Of a stretch of 64,000 nucleotides of DNA, positions 5,160 to 41,464 are shown one piece after another. Source of the DNA: a virus (lineage: Duplodnaviria; Caudoviricetes); IMG/VR virus record IMGVR_UViG_3300001528_000921, positions 3,049 through 67,048 of that record; one strand, 5' to 3'. Made by a program: the position numbers and the translations under genes. Every line of letters starts with the position of its first letter. Positions within the stretch are counted from its first letter, which is position 1. Under the pieces are notes generated by a model, which made no database searches, was not told where the DNA came from, and was given only the letters and a program-made list of their open reading frames with translations.

Positions 5160-5347
5160 TAGAAACTCTCTACATAAGCAAAACACCATACGGAGTAGCG
5201 ATATTTTCCGACGTTCTCGGCGAAAACTTTAAGCGGTTTTATATCGGTTATTCGGAAAGAAAAGCGATCGCCGAGTATATGCACGAAATTCGCACCCGTA
5301 TGAATGTAAAACGCCTACCCTTCAAATTCAAAGAAGTCCGAATTTGA
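5156..5347 (+). CDS. Hypothetical early protein
   Basis: Translationally coupled ORF. Confidence 0.6.
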   Translation: MIETLYISKTPYGVAIFSDVLGENFKRFYIGYSERKAIAEYMHEIRTRMNVKRLPFKFKEVRI

Positions 5348-12398: not shown

Positions 12399-12712
12399 AA
12401 TTAAATACTCGCCCGACCATGGCGACAACGTTTACGTCATTGAAGTTGAAGCTGAATCGATGGCGAAAGCTCGAATCGAAGCGTGGCATACAATCAATTC
12501 TTGGCGGTCGCTCGACAAGGAAGACATTTCGTTCAAAACATTTTTGGAGTGGATGACATGGGGTGCGCGGTCGTGATTGGAATCCCCGCTCTCTGCTTCT
12601 ACATCGGATACCTGATGGGAACGAGCGGGTCGAGGGGATTGGCGTTTGAGTTTTTGTGCGAGCGGAACCTTGAGGCTGAATTTGAAAAATGGACTAAGAA
12701 GAAAGCGGGGCT

Positions 12713-12904
12713 GTGATGCTTGATTTATCCGCATGGTTTTCTCCAACGTTTTTGGATTTGATTTGGTATCACTTGTTCGGGCATTTCATCGGGTACACGA
12801 AACAGCAAACGAAAGCGTGGTTCGCAAAGCAAAACGCCGAACGGCAAAATTCTGTTGACGAATTCAATGAAATTTTGTATAAGGAAGGTGACGAATTCAA
12901 ATAA
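12713..12904 (+). CDS. Small hypothetical protein
   Basis: Last ORF before the RNA array; stop at 12904. Confidence 0.55.
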   Translation: MMLDLSAWFSPTFLDLIWYHLFGHFIGYTKQQTKAWFAKQNAERQNSVDEFNEILYKEGDEFK

Positions 12905-12906
12905 GT

Positions 12907-13374
12907 CAGCGGAAAATCTCGGATGGCGCGGCGACGTCAACAGGAAACAATGCTTGGGAAGTCCGCTGCGACGTGCCTGTACGTTTCATTACTTTCCTAA
13001 TTTTTCCATTCGCCGAAAATTACTTACCGCCCAACCTTAAAGCGGTCGCCGTGGGTCGTAAGAAGTTGATGCTTGTTCGGGGGCGGTTTGCTTGAGTATG
13101 GCAATTCTTACCGAATAATCACTTCATCACGGCAAATTTTATGCGAACGCCGCCTACTCCAAGCGGTCGCCGCGGATCGTAAGAAACAATGCCAAGCTGG
13201 GGCGGCGGTCTTCATGGACCCATATTCAGCAAATTGTTTCATCGCGGCAAAATAAACGTAAGTCCGACCGTTTCCAAACGGCGAGCCGCGGCGTCGAAAA
13301 GTCAGATGCCAAACCGGAGGTCGGACGGGGGTAGCAAAGTCCCTTCATAGACCGGTGAATCAACTGCCCGCGGC
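12907..13374 (+). ncRNA. Tandem array of four structured ~120-nt RNA-like units (unknown family)
   Basis: Each unit has a 7-8 bp closing stem, a 6-7 nt loop segment pairing with a downstream segment, a small hairpin and a conserved ATGC; the pairings covary between units. Confidence 0.7.
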
Positions 13375-13405
13375 ACACAATTTTCAACCCTGAAAGGAAA
13401 TCGAG

Positions 13406-14758
13406 ATGAACCCAGAGTTCGGGCTTCGCCCTTACCAAGCGCAGCATTGTGCTTTTCACATAACGCACAGAGCTTCTCTGAATTATTCCGCATGTGCGAC
13501 GGGCAAGACCTACACGATGGCGTGGCTTGCCGAGTATTACTGGAAGACCGAACAGTGCAAGACAGTTTTGATAAATCCGATTTCCTTGTCGGTCAAAAAC
13601 AAAGATGAAATCGTCCGCTTTACGGATTTCGCAGACGACGAAGTTCAGATTGTTTCTGGGACGCCGGCAAAACGCGCTCGTCAATGGAAAAATGTCAAAG
13701 CAAAGGTGTTTATCGTTGGTCCCGACTTGTTCGGGAAAGAATGGGAGCAAATGCTTCCCGACGTGAAATCGATTCTGGTCGACGAATCGCATTTAGCATA
13801 CAGCGGACACAAATCGGCACGTACCCAAGCGTTCTACATGGCGCAGAAAAACGCAAATCATATCACGTTTTTCACGGCGACGCCGTTGTCGTCCGGTTCG
13901 GCGTCTTGCGCCTATCCTTTGTTCGCGGTTTGCGCTCCGAGAATTTACACGAACAATCAGCGTTTCATGAATTACCATTGCATCCGTTCGAACCTCGGCT
14001 TCATCGTTGGGTGGAAGAACCTCGATGTGTTGGGACGGAATTTGAAAACGTTTTCGGTAGGAATTTCGTTTGCCGAAGCGTACAAAAACTCGCCGGGAAA
14101 TATCATTTCGTTTGAGAAATGCGGTTTCGATGACGATGAGCTTGAGCGGATTTATACCGAAATGGAAGAAGAAGGCTTGGCTGAATTGGAAGACCATTAC
14201 GTTGAAACTCCGAATGGAGCCGTGGCGCTGATGAAATGCCGTCAACTTTTGTCTTGTCCTGAAGCGGTCGGGTATAATCCAAAAAAGCTTGCAAAAATGG
14301 AATTGTTGCGGACGCACTTGCAGCGAATCGTTGACGGTGCCGAGAAACAGATTCTTGTTTTTAGCTGCTTCGTCGCCGCGCAGGAACGTGTGGTCGCGCT
14401 CTGCAAGGAAATGGGCTTGAGCGTTGGACTAATCAACGGTTCTGTTGTTGGTGGCGCCCGCGCCCAGATTTCAGACGATTTTGCAAAAGATAGGCTTCAA
14501 GTTCTGGTCGCATCGCCGCTCACAATGTCCGTTGGACACAATTTTCAAAATATCGACGAACTGGTTTTCGTTGATTGTGACTGGTCTTTGTCTTCCTTCG
14601 AGCAAGCGTGCTTCCGCGGCAACCGCGGCGGGCGTTCGACACCGCTTCCGATTACGATTCTGGTCGTGGATTGCAAAGTCGAGAAACGCTACTGGAAAAA
14701 ACTGTTGGGAGAAAAAACTCAATATAAACAAATAGTTGACTCCCAACTCAAAGAATAA
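13406..14758 (+). CDS. SF2 (SNF2/DExH-like) helicase
   Basis: ACATGKT Walker A, DESH motif II, TATP motif III, GHNFQ, EQACFRGNRGG motif VI. Confidence 0.9.
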   Translation: MNPEFGLRPYQAQHCAFHITHRASLNYSACATGKTYTMAWLAEYYWKTEQCKTVLINPISLSVKNKDEIVRFTDFADDEVQIVSGTPAKRARQWKNVKAKVFIVGPDLFGKEWEQMLPDVKSILVDESHLAYSGHKSARTQAFYMAQKNANHITFFTATPLSSGSASCAYPLFAVCAPRIYTNNQRFMNYHCIRSNLGFIVGWKNLDVLGRNLKTFSVGISFAEAYKNSPGNIISFEKCGFDDDELERIYTEMEEEGLAELEDHYVETPNGAVALMKCRQLLSCPEAVGYNPKKLAKMELLRTHLQRIVDGAEKQILVFSCFVAAQERVVALCKEMGLSVGLINGSVVGGARAQISDDFAKDRLQVLVASPLTMSVGHNFQNIDELVFVDCDWSLSSFEQACFRGNRGGRSTPLPITILVVDCKVEKRYWKKLLGEKTQYKQIVDSQLKE

Positions 14759-23293: not shown

Positions 23294-24652
23294 ATGTCAT
23301 GAATTTGTGCGAAATATGGCTTAGAATAATACTCTTTTGGGCTTGACACAATTCTTTGTTTATGAGAATATGTCATCAAAGAAGCGGATAGGATCGCTCC
23401 CGAAAACTTTGCAACCTACAAAGCTGCCGCTTCTTCATCTTAGGTTTCGCTGAGGAGCGACGAATGATTTTAGCTCACAAAATACGCATATATCCGAACC
23501 GTGAACAGGAACAATTCTTGAAGAAGTCCTGCGGAGTTGCTCGATTTGCTTATAACTGGGGATTGGAAGAATGGGAACGCAGATATCAGAATGGTGGGAA
23601 AATAAATCGTTTTAAATTGGACAAAATTTTCAATTCCGTTAAGAAAAAAGAATTTCCATTTGTTTGCGAAGTAAGCAAGTGCTGTTCTCAAATTGCATTT
23701 AGGAATCTCGGTCGTGCATATAAAAACTTTTTTGATAGACGGACAAAATTCCCACATTTCAAAAAGAAAGGTGTTCATGATTCGTTTGGTTTGGACAACT
23801 TAAATTTTTGCATTGACGGGAAACGCATCAAACTCGCCAAAATGCAACCGATGCGAATGGCTGAACGTCTCCGATTCGACGGCAAAATCATGTCCGGCAC
23901 GGTTTCGCATGTCGCTGACAAGTGGTACATTTCAATCGCGGTTGAATTGCGAAAAGATTTAGCGTTACCGAAGACTGGCAAATATGCAGGCGTCGATTTA
24001 GGCGTGAAGGACATCGCCATCACATCTGACGGGTGCAAATTTGCGAATCCTCGGTGGATTCAGAAATCTGAAAAGAAGTTGAAACGATTGAATCGCGAAC
24101 TGGCTCGGCGTCAGCGGGCAAGCAAAAGGCGTGAAAGAACACGTTTGCGCTTGGCGCGGCAACACGACCGAGTCGCGAATCAGCGAAAAGATTGGCTTCA
24201 CAAGATCACGACATATCTGGTGAGAAAATATGACGTGATCGCACTGGAAGATTTAAACGTTCGTGGAATGGTTAAAAACCACAACCTCGCGAAAGCTATC
24301 ACGAACGTTTCCTTTGGCGAGTTCAATCGCCAGATCGAGTACAAAGCGCAGATTTACGGGAAACATATTTATCGTGTTGATAGATATTTCCCTTCGAGCA
24401 AAACCTGCTCGAACTGCGGTTGTATTCAGGAAAAGATGCCGTTGCAAGTCCGTGAATGGATATGCCCCGATTGCGGGGCGCACCATGATCGCGACATCAA
24501 TGCGGCGACAAATTTGTTACGGCAGGCTATGCCGGAAGTTACGCACGGGGAGAGATCGGCTCTGGTGATTTCTGAAATTTCAGATGTTACGAAACTGGAC
24601 TCGTTGAACCGTGAATCATACAAAATCTTATGATATGAGTAGTAATGCTGGG
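23274..24652 (+). mobile_element. tnpA-less TnpB element (IS607/IS605-type) inserted in the 3' end of sbcD
   Basis: Bounded by the direct repeat AATGCTGGG (23265-23273 and 24644-24652); contains its own promoter, a structured leader and tnpB. Confidence 0.75.
23464..24633 (+). CDS. tnpB: TnpB RNA-guided endonuclease
   Basis: N-terminal HTH (KIRIYPN), RuvC D (GVDLG), E (LEDL), D (DRDINAA), Zn finger CSNC/CPDC; all catalytic residues intact. Confidence 0.95.
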   Translation: MILAHKIRIYPNREQEQFLKKSCGVARFAYNWGLEEWERRYQNGGKINRFKLDKIFNSVKKKEFPFVCEVSKCCSQIAFRNLGRAYKNFFDRRTKFPHFKKKGVHDSFGLDNLNFCIDGKRIKLAKMQPMRMAERLRFDGKIMSGTVSHVADKWYISIAVELRKDLALPKTGKYAGVDLGVKDIAITSDGCKFANPRWIQKSEKKLKRLNRELARRQRASKRRERTRLRLARQHDRVANQRKDWLHKITTYLVRKYDVIALEDLNVRGMVKNHNLAKAITNVSFGEFNRQIEYKAQIYGKHIYRVDRYFPSSKTCSNCGCIQEKMPLQVREWICPDCGAHHDRDINAATNLLRQAMPEVTHGERSALVISEISDVTKLDSLNRESYKIL

Positions 24653-38496: not shown

Positions 38497-38757
38497 ATGA
38501 AAATGTTTTTCGAAGGCGCGGCTCCCGAATTTTGCGAGAGCGTCATCGGCAGACTTATGCTTCCATCTTGGAATCGTGAGCTTCTTTTCCGCAGATACGT
38601 TCGCTGTGAATCGGACAAACAAATAGCGAACACGATTTGCACCCGACCGTTGTCAAAAGACCATATCAATAAAGAAATTGCAAAATCGCTCGAAATGGCG
38701 TATGATGCGCTCAAAATAATTCAACAACAAGTGTGGTGCGAAAATGGCAAGTCGTAA
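38497..38757 (+). CDS. Sigma-region-4-like HTH protein
   Basis: NRELLFRRYV..ESDKQIA...HINKEIAKSL. Confidence 0.55.
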   Translation: MKMFFEGAAPEFCESVIGRLMLPSWNRELLFRRYVRCESDKQIANTICTRPLSKDHINKEIAKSLEMAYDALKIIQQQVWCENGKS

Positions 38758-39817
38758 AATTCCCGAATCTGCAGTCGAAAACCTCGTCAATGATTTGGCG
38801 TCGAAACAGGACAAATCGAATCTGTCCACGGCTCTTTTGGAATCGCTCGGATACACAATGGGTGGCGCGACGCCACGAAACTTTGTTTACGAATCTGCCA
38901 CGTCGATTCGAGTCAAAGCTCCGTGGTACTGCAAATTGGACGGATTCGGGTGGTTTTCGATGCCGCAAGACGTCGTTATTCCCATGACCGGACTTGCCGC
39001 GAACACCGAATACTACATTTATTTGTGCAACAAAAACGACGTTTGGTCTTTTCAAACGTCTTCGAACTCGACGATTCCCGACGGATTCACGGCATCAAAC
39101 TCAAGAAAAGTGGCTTGGTTTCACACGATTGGGGCGGACATCGAAACGGGTTTGACCTACGATTGGGGCGGAGCGACCGGGTTGGTGCATCCTTACTCAG
39201 GCATGACCGCAGGAAGCATTGATCCGAACTCCGTTTGGTGTCGCTCGTTCCGACCGAAAACCTCACTGCCTTTTTTCAATTACATCGAGCCGATTGATTT
39301 GGCGGTTTCAGTTTTTCTTCAGTCCGGCACCGGCACGTCCACGCAATTCGTCGCAAACGCGACGATAACCGATGCTCGTCATTACGGGAATCATCTTGAA
39401 GATTTGCTTTCCGTCGATTGCCGGATGCTCACAGAATACGAATTTGCGATGGCGGCTGACGGTTCGAATCAAAAAACGAATATCGCCGGTTCGGCGGATC
39501 CGGTTACAACAGGTTTTCACAAAGATACTGGGGGTCGCTCGATGATCAGTCGATTCGGACTTTGGTCTTGTTGCGGCGAGATGTGGCAATTCTTGCAGTC
39601 GCCTTGCGCTTCTCTGAATAAAGGTTGGCAAGGAATTGATGACGGAAAAGGCGATACTTACGGCGCGTTGGCTGTGTTGCTTGGCGGCGGGCCTTGGATT
39701 GACTCCTCGCACTGCGGCTCACGGGCGCTGGATGGCGCTAATTCGCGTGCTACGCTCGCTACGAATTTTTCGGTCCGCGCTTCGAGCCCGATTTTGCGAG
39801 GGTTCGAGTGGGCGTAG
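38744..39817 (+). CDS. DGR target protein (CLec/FGE-like fold; probable receptor-binding protein)
   Basis: C-terminal VR; RMLTEYEF..AA and GLWSCCGEMWQ (GNVWE-like) motifs. Confidence 0.85.
   Translation: MASRKIPESAVENLVNDLASKQDKSNLSTALLESLGYTMGGATPRNFVYESATSIRVKAPWYCKLDGFGWFSMPQDVVIPMTGLAANTEYYIYLCNKNDVWSFQTSSNSTIPDGFTASNSRKVAWFHTIGADIETGLTYDWGGATGLVHPYSGMTAGSIDPNSVWCRSFRPKTSLPFFNYIEPIDLAVSVFLQSGTGTSTQFVANATITDARHYGNHLEDLLSVDCRMLTEYEFAMAADGSNQKTNIAGSADPVTTGFHKDTGGRSMISRFGLWSCCGEMWQFLQSPCASLNKGWQGIDDGKGDTYGALAVLLGGGPWIDSSHCGSRALDGANSRATLATNFSVRASSPILRGFEWA
39662..39785 (+). repeat. DGR variable repeat (VR), 124 bp
   Basis: Identical to the TR except at 12 positions, all of which are A in the TR. 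Confidence 0.95.
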
Positions 39818-39860
39818 GGCGATCTCTCGGGAGAGCGCGCTCCGTGTGGCGCGATGGAAC
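39818..39860. other. GC-rich hairpins downstream of VR (retrohoming cruciform candidate)
   Basis: CTCT-CGGG-AGAG and CGCGC-8 nt-GCGCG immediately after the target stop. Confidence 0.55.
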
Positions 39861-39937
39861 GAGGGCGCGATCCGCAAAATTTATGTTGCAAATAGTTTGC
39901 GACATGTTGTATAAATTCTTTAAAGTAAATTCGCACT

Positions 39938-40061
39938 AACGCGTTGGCTGTGTTGCTTGGCGGCGGGAATTGGAATAACTCCTCGCACTGCGGCTCACGG
40001 GCGCTGAATGGCAATAATTCGCGTGCTACGCTCAATACGAATTATTCGGTCCGCGCTTCGA
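39938..40061 (+). repeat. DGR template repeat (TR), 124 bp
   Basis: AAT/AAC-rich copy of the VR, upstream of the RT. Confidence 0.95.
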
Positions 40062-40198
40062 TACACATTCGCAAGAAACTTCAACTTGCGGATACGGCTG
40101 GCGAATTTACTGCGGTACGCGATTAAATTCGGTCCGAAACACACAACGAAGTTCGAGAGTTCCCAAGTAGGCTCTCACGAGTTCGAAAGGGACTTTCG

Positions 40199-41464
40199 AT
40201 GAAACGTTACGGCTATCTCTGGGAAAAATTCATATCCAAAGAAAACTTTGAACTCGCGTTCAAAAACGCGGCGCGTGGACGTCGCTCGGTTAAATCGATC
40301 AGAATTTACGAATCGAATCTCGAAGAAAACCTTGAGAACCTCCGTGAAAAATTAAATATGGGTGTTTGGAAACATGGACCGTATCGGAACCGAACCGTTT
40401 TCGAACCGAAGAAGCGCGATATTTCCATTTGTAAATTTGAAGACAGAATCGTCCATTGGGCGATTGTGAACATAATTCAGCCGATTTTCGAACCGACTTT
40501 CATTTCGGCAGCATACGCCTGCCGAAAAGGGTTCGGGCAGCACAAAGCGAGTCAAAAAGTCGCGGAATACACTCGAAAATATGAATACGTCTACAAATTT
40601 GATCACTCAAAGTATTATCCGACGATGGACCACGAATATCTGAAATCGCGACTTCGCTCGAAAATCAAAGACGAACGGTTTTTGGACGTCGTCTTCAACG
40701 TGATCGATTCTCAAGAAATCGGCGTTCCGATCGGGAATCTCACTTCGCAAATTTTCGGGAACATTTATAGAACACCGCTCGATCGCCTGATTAAAGAAAA
40801 GCTGCGCGCAAAAGCTTACGTCAATTACATGGACGACGGAATGGTTTTCTCGAACGACAAGGATTTTCTTCGAGAAGTGAAACGAGAAGTTGAGTTGTTT
40901 GTGCGAAACGTTCAAAAGCAAAAGCTTTCGAAATCGGAAATCTTCAAAACGAATCGAGGTGTTGACGCTCTCGGCTATCGCCACTTTAAGCGATACATAT
41001 TGCTGCGGAAACGAACGGTTCGTAGAATGAAACGATCATTTGCCCGACTGCAAAACTTGACTTATGAATCCGCGCTTGGTAAAATAGCGTCCACGATGGG
41101 GATTTTGAAGCATTGTTGCTCGAAGAATCTCGCGGACAAATTGAAAATAAAAGAACTGTTTGGAACGTACATGAAAAAGTTTTCCGAAATCCGTCATTCG
41201 AACGACTGCTTGTTTGAAGGCACGCATCTCAAAATTGACGAGATTCTCGACAAGGAAATAACCTTACTCGGGTTCAAATCACAGAAATCAAAGCTGAACA
41301 ACGACGATTACGTCATAATCGCTTTCGAACTCAAAGGTGAAAAACACGTTACGTTCACAGGATCCAAGATTCTTCGGGAAAAACTCACCGAATACGCGAA
41401 TGAAATTCCTTTTTCGGTTACGATAACCCGCCCGACCGGAAAAAATTATTACGCTTTTGTTTGA
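40199..41464 (+). CDS. DGR reverse transcriptase with a fused ~97-aa C-terminal domain
   Basis: GVPIGNLTSQ (DGR SQ motif), YMDD, GVDALGY; ORF continues in frame through MKKFSEI...YYAFV. Confidence 0.93.
   Translation: MKRYGYLWEKFISKENFELAFKNAARGRRSVKSIRIYESNLEENLENLREKLNMGVWKHGPYRNRTVFEPKKRDISICKFEDRIVHWAIVNIIQPIFEPTFISAAYACRKGFGQHKASQKVAEYTRKYEYVYKFDHSKYYPTMDHEYLKSRLRSKIKDERFLDVVFNVIDSQEIGVPIGNLTSQIFGNIYRTPLDRLIKEKLRAKAYVNYMDDGMVFSNDKDFLREVKREVELFVRNVQKQKLSKSEIFKTNRGVDALGYRHFKRYILLRKRTVRRMKRSFARLQNLTYESALGKIASTMGILKHCCSKNLADKLKIKELFGTYMKKFSEIRHSNDCLFEGTHLKIDEILDKEITLLGFKSQKSKLNNDDYVIIAFELKGEKHVTFTGSKILREKLTEYANEIPFSVTITRPTGKNYYAFV

Follow-up and report, generated by a model that had tools for sequence, protein, structure and literature searches.

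An uncatalogued RNA fold with a predicted double pseudoknot, in four tandem copies before the helicase gene of an uncultured gut phage

The window analysed here is a stretch of 64,000 nucleotides (nt; bases 3049-67048 of the 67,048-bp IMG/VR virus record IMGVR_UViG_3300001528_000921, which has direct terminal repeats and is rated complete), and the subject of this report is a tandem array of structured RNA units lying just 5' of a helicase gene on its + strand. Among the described RNAs that resemble such units, the ribozymes of the hepatitis delta virus (HDV) type have the helix order P1-P2-P3(L3)-P1'-P1.1-P4-P2', with the catalytic C in J4/2. The type III antitoxin RNAs ToxI, CptI and TenpI and the phage pseudo-ToxI RNAs are tandem pseudoknotted repeats of variable number with A-rich single-stranded joints, the phage copies being decoys. 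The leader of T4 gene 32 carries a single small H-type pseudoknot, which is bound by the gene's own product.

The arrays of the UG27 reverse transcriptases in gut phages are the one case known to have been described in which a phage carries pseudoknotted units in tandem that are diverse in sequence and conserved in structure, with copies varying between close relatives; each unit, about 135-167 nt long, has a main hairpin, an asymmetric internal loop with short conserved motifs, and AUCNNNNNNNUANAG and UUYA motifs (bioRxiv 10.64898/2026.09.22.753630). The first phage tandem RNA array found to template complementary DNA synthesis was described just in 2026. Exonuclease-resistant RNAs (xrRNAs) of flaviviruses occur in tandem and also stop the bacterial RNase J1 (PMC5760640). 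Clustered hammerhead ribozymes cut the polycistronic RNAs of prophages, and the haloviruses HF1 and HF2 carry a hammerhead variant 13 nt 5' of the helicase start codon, at a mapped transcript 5' end (PMC3088659).

At positions 12907-13380 (+) of the window we detected four head-to-tail units of 104-119 nt each, about 50-60% alike, which are almost certainly tandem copies of one uncatalogued RNA fold of about 105-115 nt. An initial reading made from the letters alone (the sequence-only reading) had placed units at 12907, 13026, 13148 and 13262, each with a closing stem, a long-range pair, a small hairpin and an A-rich spacer, and all of these were found where it had put them. The mean column identity of the four-unit MAFFT alignment is 64% and Tandem Repeats Finder detected no array at a score of at least 30, in agreement with the description of the units as tandem and sequence-diverged; the blindness of the repeat finder suggests that they are old, diverged copies. 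The absence of a known family was likewise borne out, since Rfam 15 gave no gathering-level match in the 64 kb and, at E<=10, chance-level matches only, around the array (12600-13700) and in the units of the related loci L009, L011 and L077 described below. A search for tRNA and tmRNA found none. A coding function was considered and rejected: arrays of at least two units have stops in all six frames and no open reading frame (ORF) is common to the arrays. The single-unit stretches of L009 and L077 contain open frames, but these are just 118-130 nt long.

Comparison of the units added three helices, P2b, Px and, less firmly, Py, to the closing stem (P1), the long-range pair (P2a) and the small hairpin (P3) of the sequence-only reading, whose secondary structure was thus incomplete. 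P1 differs from unit 1 to unit 4 (CAGCGGA/TCCGCTG, ACCGCCC/GGGCGGT, CGCCGCC/GGCGGCG, GTCCGACC/GGTCGGAC), and so does P2a (CGGCGA/TCGCCG, GCCGTG/CACGGC, GCCGCG/CGCGGC, GCCGCGG/CCGCGGC). In P2b, the 'purine-rich ... AT' stretch is paired with the bases just 5' of the P2a 3' strand (GAAACAAT/ATTGTTTC in unit 3). Px joins the CGGC closing the first joiner with GUCG after the P2a 5' strand in five pairs, among them an invariant G-C and an invariant G.U, and AAA comes next. What had been described as a 'TC-purine-rich-ATGC loop stretch' is therefore no loop; it is the Px 3' strand, then AAA, then the P2b 5' strand. The strands follow one another as Px5'-P2a5'-Px3'-...-P2a3', the first two separated by 0-2 nt, as in a classical H-type pseudoknot. 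Py pairs the end of the post-P2b stretch with the junction end before the P2b 3' strand (4-7 base pairs, bp) and differs in every lineage. From this comparison the unit is predicted to consist of a spine, in which P2a, P2b and Py stack, and a capping loop with the P3 hairpin and the 3' strand of P1; its 5' tail is predicted to pair back twice, through P1 with the apical loop and through Px with the lower internal loop on its 5' side, making a double pseudoknot. Px and P2a may coexist or alternate. The units and their parts are as follows, with the scores of the covariance model R1.

12907-13025, +: unit 1, 70.5 bits
Unit 1 helices, +: P1 12907-12913 / 12962-12968; Px 12924-12928 / 12935-12939; P2a 12929-12934 / 13010-13015; P2b 12943-12951 (one bulged C) / 13000-13007; Py about 12955-12961 / 12993-12999; P3 12970-12974 / 12981-12985
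13016-13025, +: unit 1 linker, A/U-rich
13026-13147, +: unit 2, 83.4 bits
Unit 2 helices, +: P1 13026-13032 / 13081-13087; Px 13043-13047 / 13054-13058; P2a 13048-13053 / 13128-13133; P2b 13062-13070 (one bulged U) / 13118-13125; Py about 13074-13080 / 13111-13117; P3 13088-13091 / 13101-13104
13134-13147, +: linker of units 2 and 3, 14 nt, AAATTTTATGCGAA, identical to L002 2857-2870
13148-13261, +: unit 3, 97.1 bits
Unit 3 helices, +: P1 13148-13154 / 13201-13207; Px 13164-13168 / 13175-13179; P2a 13169-13174 / 13243-13248; P2b 13183-13190 / 13233-13240; Py about 13196-13200 / 13226-13230; P3 13208-13210 / 13217-13219
13249-13261, +: unit 3 linker
13262-13380, +: unit 4, the most divergent, outside the model training set, 18.8 bits (E 0.0098-0.017 depending on the run)
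Unit 4 helices, +: P1 13262-13269 / 13319-13326; Px 13279-13283 / 13292-13296; P2a 13285-13291 / 13368-13374; P2b 13300-13307 / 13359-13365 (small internal loop); Py about 13313-13317 / 13352-13356; P3 13329-13331 / 13341-13343

The evidence for the fold is covariation that goes far beyond chance. When 17 units were aligned with MAFFT, pairing in P2a and P2b reached 98.3%, 11 of the 14 pairs varied on both sides, and the covariation was 0.783, against at most 0.211 with the partners slid. A model-guided alignment of 22 distinct units, fitted to P2a and P2b and thus biased towards both, with Px outside the model, gave 98.6% of the cells of P2a, P2b and Px paired (P2b, 98.9%), 15 of 19 pairs varying on both sides and a covariation of 0.794 against at most 0.103. 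The helices recur with other sequences in related contigs, which supports the proposal that selection acts on RNA structure. Counting the pair cells of P1, Px, P2a, P2b and P3 over the 22 units, from eight phage contigs and in our own segmentation, we found 670 cells with 614 Watson-Crick and 52 G.U pairs (666 standard) and 4 mismatches, just one of them A.C; the boundaries of P1 and P3 were set per unit, so that the absence of mismatches there is partly by construction. The excess of G.U over A.C indicates that the + strand is the one folding, as the sequence-only reading had proposed from the wobbles.

P1 occurs in 12 sequence versions of 5-9 bp, and in a control independent of the boundary choice its own strands pair over 7.45 bp, against 4.93 bp across lineages; for Py the corresponding values are 4.27 and 2.23 bp. 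Two individual cases illustrate this: in Px of window unit 1, GUCA replaces GUCG and the partner C is now U, and unit 2 of L002 and unit 2 of L005, two of the related loci, differ almost solely by two swapped P2b base pairs. About 15 unpaired or wobble positions per unit are near-invariant. Minimum free energy (MFE) folding of single units (z-scores 0.01 to -2.2) missed the pseudoknots and is uninformative because the structure is pseudoknotted.

The linkers between units are 10-14 nt long and A/U-rich, with A as the first base in 21 of 22 units. The linker of units 2 and 3 is the same in the window and in L002 despite wholly replaced flanking P1 helices, and it may itself be a signal, such as a processing site.

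Helicase homologues from metagenomes were used to collect loci with the same gene order, and the family as a whole comprises 22 distinct units in 9 unit lineages and 5 phage lineages. The copy number differs among the loci, listed here with the identity of their helicase to that of the window.

L002-L005 and L008: three units before the helicase gene, helicase 97% or 73% identical
L006: two units, 68-69%
L011-L013: three units, 68-69%
L009: one unit, 61%
L007: no unit, a 63-nt gap, 56%
L010: no unit, 41%

The phages JWF and Lumi keep the helicase, with no gap and no array before it, and arrays of 1-4 units preceding the helicase occur in one clade of uncultured gut phages. The variable unit number and the lack of the array in relatives indicate that it is an accessory insert; the separate conservation of each unit copy suggests a dosage-like role. 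L002 is a mosaic, since its helicase is 97% identical to that of the window and its three-unit array belongs to the type found in the 73% helicase group (L002 2636-3000, set against window 12905-13405 and L005). The recombination joint lies near the helicase start, and the array therefore moves as a module.

A covariance model of the kind that the sequence-only reading had proposed as a check, R1, was built from 17 units with P2a and P2b only and recovered the units left out of it: unit 3 of L011 and of L012 (38.6 and 37.7 bits), window unit 4 (18.8 bits) and the L009 unit (18.0 bits). R1 found no other match in the window, in 30 further loci or elsewhere in four full virus records. In IMG/VR, the exact 21-nt core had no match; the pattern CGGC..GTCGAAAG..ATGC had 114, of which only the known relatives and one further locus, L077, survived the model screen. 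The pattern TCGTAAG..ATGC..AAT..CAT gave 116 matches, none with P2 pairing. A stricter pattern of low sensitivity, run on 185,579 species genomes, gave 52 matches; this number is close to the chance expectation, and none of the 52 has P2 pairing. A second model, R2, detected nothing in 4 + 151 alphaproteobacterial genomes, where few candidates were scored per genome and absence is not demonstrated. Only five phage lineages were found, so that the family seems rare and its general reach limited; the searches were pattern-limited or of low sensitivity, and this rarity is therefore apparent, not proven.

The member from the pattern scan, L077 5390-5493 (32.3 bits), is a single unit in a 56.9-kb record, at a site with 68% G+C, and has all six helices with new sequences. 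It is located within the early rightward operon of a temperate phage that has an S24 repressor on the opposite strand, and the order on its own strand is small ORFs, the unit, a 68-aa ORF, an N6/N4 DNA methylase and a DnaA-C-like protein. A bona fide small RNA of the alphaproteobacterial MmgR/suhB type (RF00519) was detected 110 nt 5' of the unit (L201:1317-1391, corresponding to L077 about 5206-5280, +), with 41.2 bits against a gathering score of 41, a UUUCCUCCCUAGAC motif and a terminator; this small RNA points to an alphaproteobacterial host for the L077 phage. The window phage and the L077 prophage have only TnpB (33% identity) and one weak match in common. TnpB is found in three of the four genomes and is absent from the complete, array-bearing relative G003, and no protein partner is shared between the window's genome (G000) and G001. 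The RNA is therefore independent of any conserved phage protein.

All plausible genes around the array are on the + strand. Upstream is a series of small early ORFs without known families, the last of which ends at 12904 and is followed by the 501-nt gap filled by the units. The helicase gene opens the replication module and is followed by genes for a 264-aa protein, a 5'-3' exonuclease and a DNA polymerase. The nearest cultured phages by helicase are phages of about 80 kb of Achromobacter, Xylophilus, Pseudoalteromonas and Caulobacter (28-35% identity), and no close DNA relative was found among deposited phages. The adjoining genes, and two further loci of the window that bear on the argument, are these.

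12713-12904, +: small ORF of 63 aa without Pfam or PHROG family, its stop codon 2 nt 5' of unit 1
13392-13408, +: helicase ribosome-binding site (RBS; GAAAGGAAA) and ATG, 17 nt past the 3' strand of unit 4 P2a
13406-14758, +: SF2 helicase (ResIII and Helicase_C; PHROG 62, DNA helicase)
23464-24633, +: TnpB gene (OrfB_IS605, Cas12f1-like TNB and HTH), with homologues in the array-bearing records G001 and G002 and none in the complete relative G003
38744-41464, +: diversity-generating retroelement, with an Mtd-like protein (mtd_2nd domain), then a 421-aa reverse transcriptase (RVT_1)

In every one of the five lineages the last unit precedes the RBS of a DNA-metabolism gene, at 0-20 nt from the P2a 3' strand.

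With the fold and its setting in hand, the units can be compared with the systems named above. They share with HDV-like ribozymes a 7-bp P1 at the extreme 5' end that crosses a long-range P2, a hairpin right after the P1 3' strand and a similar size, and one member (L077) begins with a G.U pair. The HDV ribozyme differs in having a local P3/L3 hairpin between the P2 5' and the P1 3' strands, whereas here that strand pairs with the 3' half (P2b, Py). Furthermore, the units lack P1.1, their post-P3 junction (J3) has no invariant C and only its last A is invariant, and the first nucleotide of the unit is not conserved. The HDV-type models of Rfam gave no match at gathering or at E<=10. Of the HDV-like order seen by the sequence-only reading only the crossing of P1 and P2 is shared, and the HDV-like framing was not supported; taken as a whole, that reading was partly supported.

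The array resembles the UG27 arrays in its tandem organisation in a phage, the sequence diversity and conserved structure of its units, the pseudoknot, and the gain and loss of copies between relatives. It differs in having no reverse transcriptase, sORF or bORF adjoining, in its unit length of 104-119 nt, in the second pseudoknot (Px) and in another helix order. RVT_1 is found solely in G000, 27 kb from the array beside the Mtd-like gene, and is absent from G001-G003, including G003, which is 100% complete and has three units. The diversity-generating retroelement is unrelated to the RNA array, which is also present in relatives without a reverse transcriptase. The UG27 motif AUCN7UANAG has two matches in the window, none of them in the array and fewer than expected by chance, UUYA alone not having been scanned. 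The likeness to the type III antitoxins lies in tandem pseudoknotted RNAs with A-rich joints. Their repeats, in contrast, are 34-45 nt long, near-identical and directly 5' of the toxin gene, whereas the present units are ~110 nt long and 50-60% alike, with a helicase gene next; the ToxN family PF13958 was not found in G000-G003, where control genomes were equally silent. With the T4 gene 32 leader the units have in common the H-type pseudoknot with a very short loop 1, an A/U-rich single strand and a DNA-metabolism gene downstream; they are larger, with six helices, and repeated, and no phage protein is shared. A VIPR vrRNA array was considered and rejected, with GGYNN pentamer runs numbering two in the window and none in the array, equal to the chance expectation.

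The novelty lies in the fold and the family; phage arrays of structured RNAs are already known as an organisation, and the function may prove to be of a known kind. In elaboration, this RNA of 110 nt, whose six helices covary and which has two pseudoknots and an invariant wobble, equals the known ribozymes and riboswitch aptamers, and it matches none of them. Whatever its function, it would enlarge the small set of complex RNA folds found in nature and the even smaller one of phage tandem RNA arrays.

We favour, at a probability of roughly 35%, the reading that the units are processed, multi-copy, trans-acting binders of a host factor or ligand. For transcription, processing, binding and partner alike, we infer from the sequences that the array RNA would be made from the + strand as part of a transcript running from the early genes to the replication genes, and that host RNases would cut it at the conserved A/U-rich linkers of 10-14 nt into stable unit-length RNAs. 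These RNAs would act through their shared conserved core, and not by base pairing, on a partner common to very different hosts, possibly a host protein (e.g., one of defence or of RNA metabolism) or a small ligand; with several copies, more sites for binding would be available, in a decoy or sponge produced early in infection. We rank this reading first because every copy has been kept separately over a long divergence, because the linkers are conserved and A/U-rich, and because the known phage RNA arrays all yield unit-length RNAs. To our knowledge, tRNA clusters, pseudo-ToxI, CRISPR-repeat mimics, UG27 and VIPR all give RNAs that are unit-length and trans-acting. A conserved autonomous fold in very different, unrelated hosts that share no protein suggests that the RNA works alone, by a self-contained activity, or with a universal or host-borne partner, for example RNA polymerase, the ribosome, RNases, a common defence factor or a small molecule.

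Several points weigh against a processed binder. Most protein-binding sites are simpler than this fold, which would equally well fit a ribozyme or the aptamer of a riboswitch. In five of five lineages the last unit stands just 5' of the RBS of a DNA-metabolism gene, a position for which a purely trans-acting RNA would have no need, compact as phage genomes are in any case. A bacterial copy that the units could mimic was not found in the searches of 185,579 and 151 genomes, both of low sensitivity. We regard it as rather doubtful that the units constitute a new functional RNA class working without a phage protein, in the form of a new self-cleaving ribozyme class or of an RNA-only, multi-copy sponge or decoy, produced early in infection, for a host immune protein or an immune signalling nucleotide. 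If true, the immune-sponge version would be the RNA counterpart of the protein sponges Tad1, Tad2 and Acb2.

A possible, still tentative alternative is that the units punctuate the mRNA in cis, as a new self-cleaving ribozyme class or as a block to 5'-end-dependent decay by RNase J or RNase E, by which the replication-gene mRNA would gain a defined, protected 5' end uncoupled from the early transcript and extra copies would add robustness. The units have a character typical of small ribozymes, being double pseudoknots in which about 15 unpaired or wobble positions are near-invariant. They are co-directional with the flanking genes and in the same operon, without a promoter or terminator of their own (no such signal in the array exceeded the shuffles), and the 5'-most nucleotides of every unit are tied into P1. 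We place this role a close second because the last unit always abuts the RBS and because there are precedents in the prophage and HF1/HF2 hammerheads (PMC3088659) and in the flaviviral RNAs that stop RNase J1 (PMC5760640). The hammerheads likewise are structured and intergenic in polycistronic phage transcripts, and one of them lies right before an early helicase gene; they differ in that the hammerhead core is absent here and in that hammerheads flank genes and are not arranged head to tail. The flaviviral xrRNA1 and xrRNA2 resemble the units in that they, too, are diverged and in tandem, lie in an untranslated region and have a compact pseudoknotted fold into which the 5' end is locked. Their helix layout is different, with a three-way junction not present here, no Rfam match links them to the units, and this is a DNA phage. 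The ring around the 5' end was not seen, and P1 could simply unzip. Against cleavage or blocking in cis it also speaks that three or four direct head-to-tail copies would be redundant where one is enough, that the 5' edge of the unit has no conserved nucleotide, that no ribozyme or xrRNA model of Rfam matches, and that the long-term separate conservation of each copy suggests dosage.

Tandem riboswitch aptamers, each unit binding a metabolite or signalling nucleotide and all jointly setting the downstream replication or modification genes, are unlikely. The fold is complex and aptamer-sized, its junction nucleotides are conserved while the helices covary, and it occupies a 5'-leader position just before the RBS in two unrelated gene contexts, both of DNA metabolism. 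Examination of riboswitch features, however, gave no terminator above shuffles and an inconsistent RBS overlap, the spacing varying from 0 to 20 nt, and of up to four copies only the last is near the RBS. An alternative 5' hairpin from the MFE folds (P1 5' strand with CGG of J1/2) was rejected, with 4.05 bp for own strands against 3.61 bp across lineages; it has no lineage-specific signal and therefore no switch is claimed. The element is also missing from close relatives with the same genes, and we know of no precedent for four like aptamers in a row without expression platforms.

It is very improbable that the array acts as DNA, by folded single strands or by protein-binding sites of a replication origin beside the helicase gene. 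Its position at the head of the replication module, the A/T-rich spacers between G+C-rich blocks and the tolerance of folded single-stranded DNA for G.T pairs would suit an origin, but six covarying helices, two pseudoknots and an invariant wobble on one strand are unlike known origins, whose iterons are conserved in sequence; moreover, the fold also stands before a methylase operon in an unrelated prophage, and related phages replicate without the array.

It is hardly credible, and largely refuted, that the array serves a protein machine as template or guide (reverse-transcriptase templates of the UG27 type, guides as in VIPR or CRISPR, or type III antitoxin repeats for a linked toxin), since the likeness in organisation to UG27 (bioRxiv 10.64898/2026.09.22.753630) and the pseudoknots and A-rich joints of ToxI are set against a reverse transcriptase confined to the retroelement of the window's genome, the lack of the UG27 motif and of GGYNN runs in the array, units of 104-119 nt in place of 135-167 nt, the absence of near-identical short repeats, guide-like matches of the variable parts to the phage genome that do not exceed shuffled controls, and a ToxN search that was negative with a silent control.

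Two minor observations concern the sequence upstream of the array. A weak match to the cyclic di-GMP-I riboswitch was detected at window 12794-12862 (+), within the 63-aa ORF (15.5 bits, E = 4, gathering score 35), and is most likely due to chance. In L003, L004, L005 and L008, an extra gene of 179-190 aa separates a 62-aa ORF from the array, about 125 nt 5' of unit 1 (e.g., L005 2511-2634). The leader that follows this gene contains a promoter-like stretch and a perfect hairpin rich in A/T (AAATCATCGATCGATGATTT). The position upstream of the helicase gene looks like a hotspot of accessory cargo.

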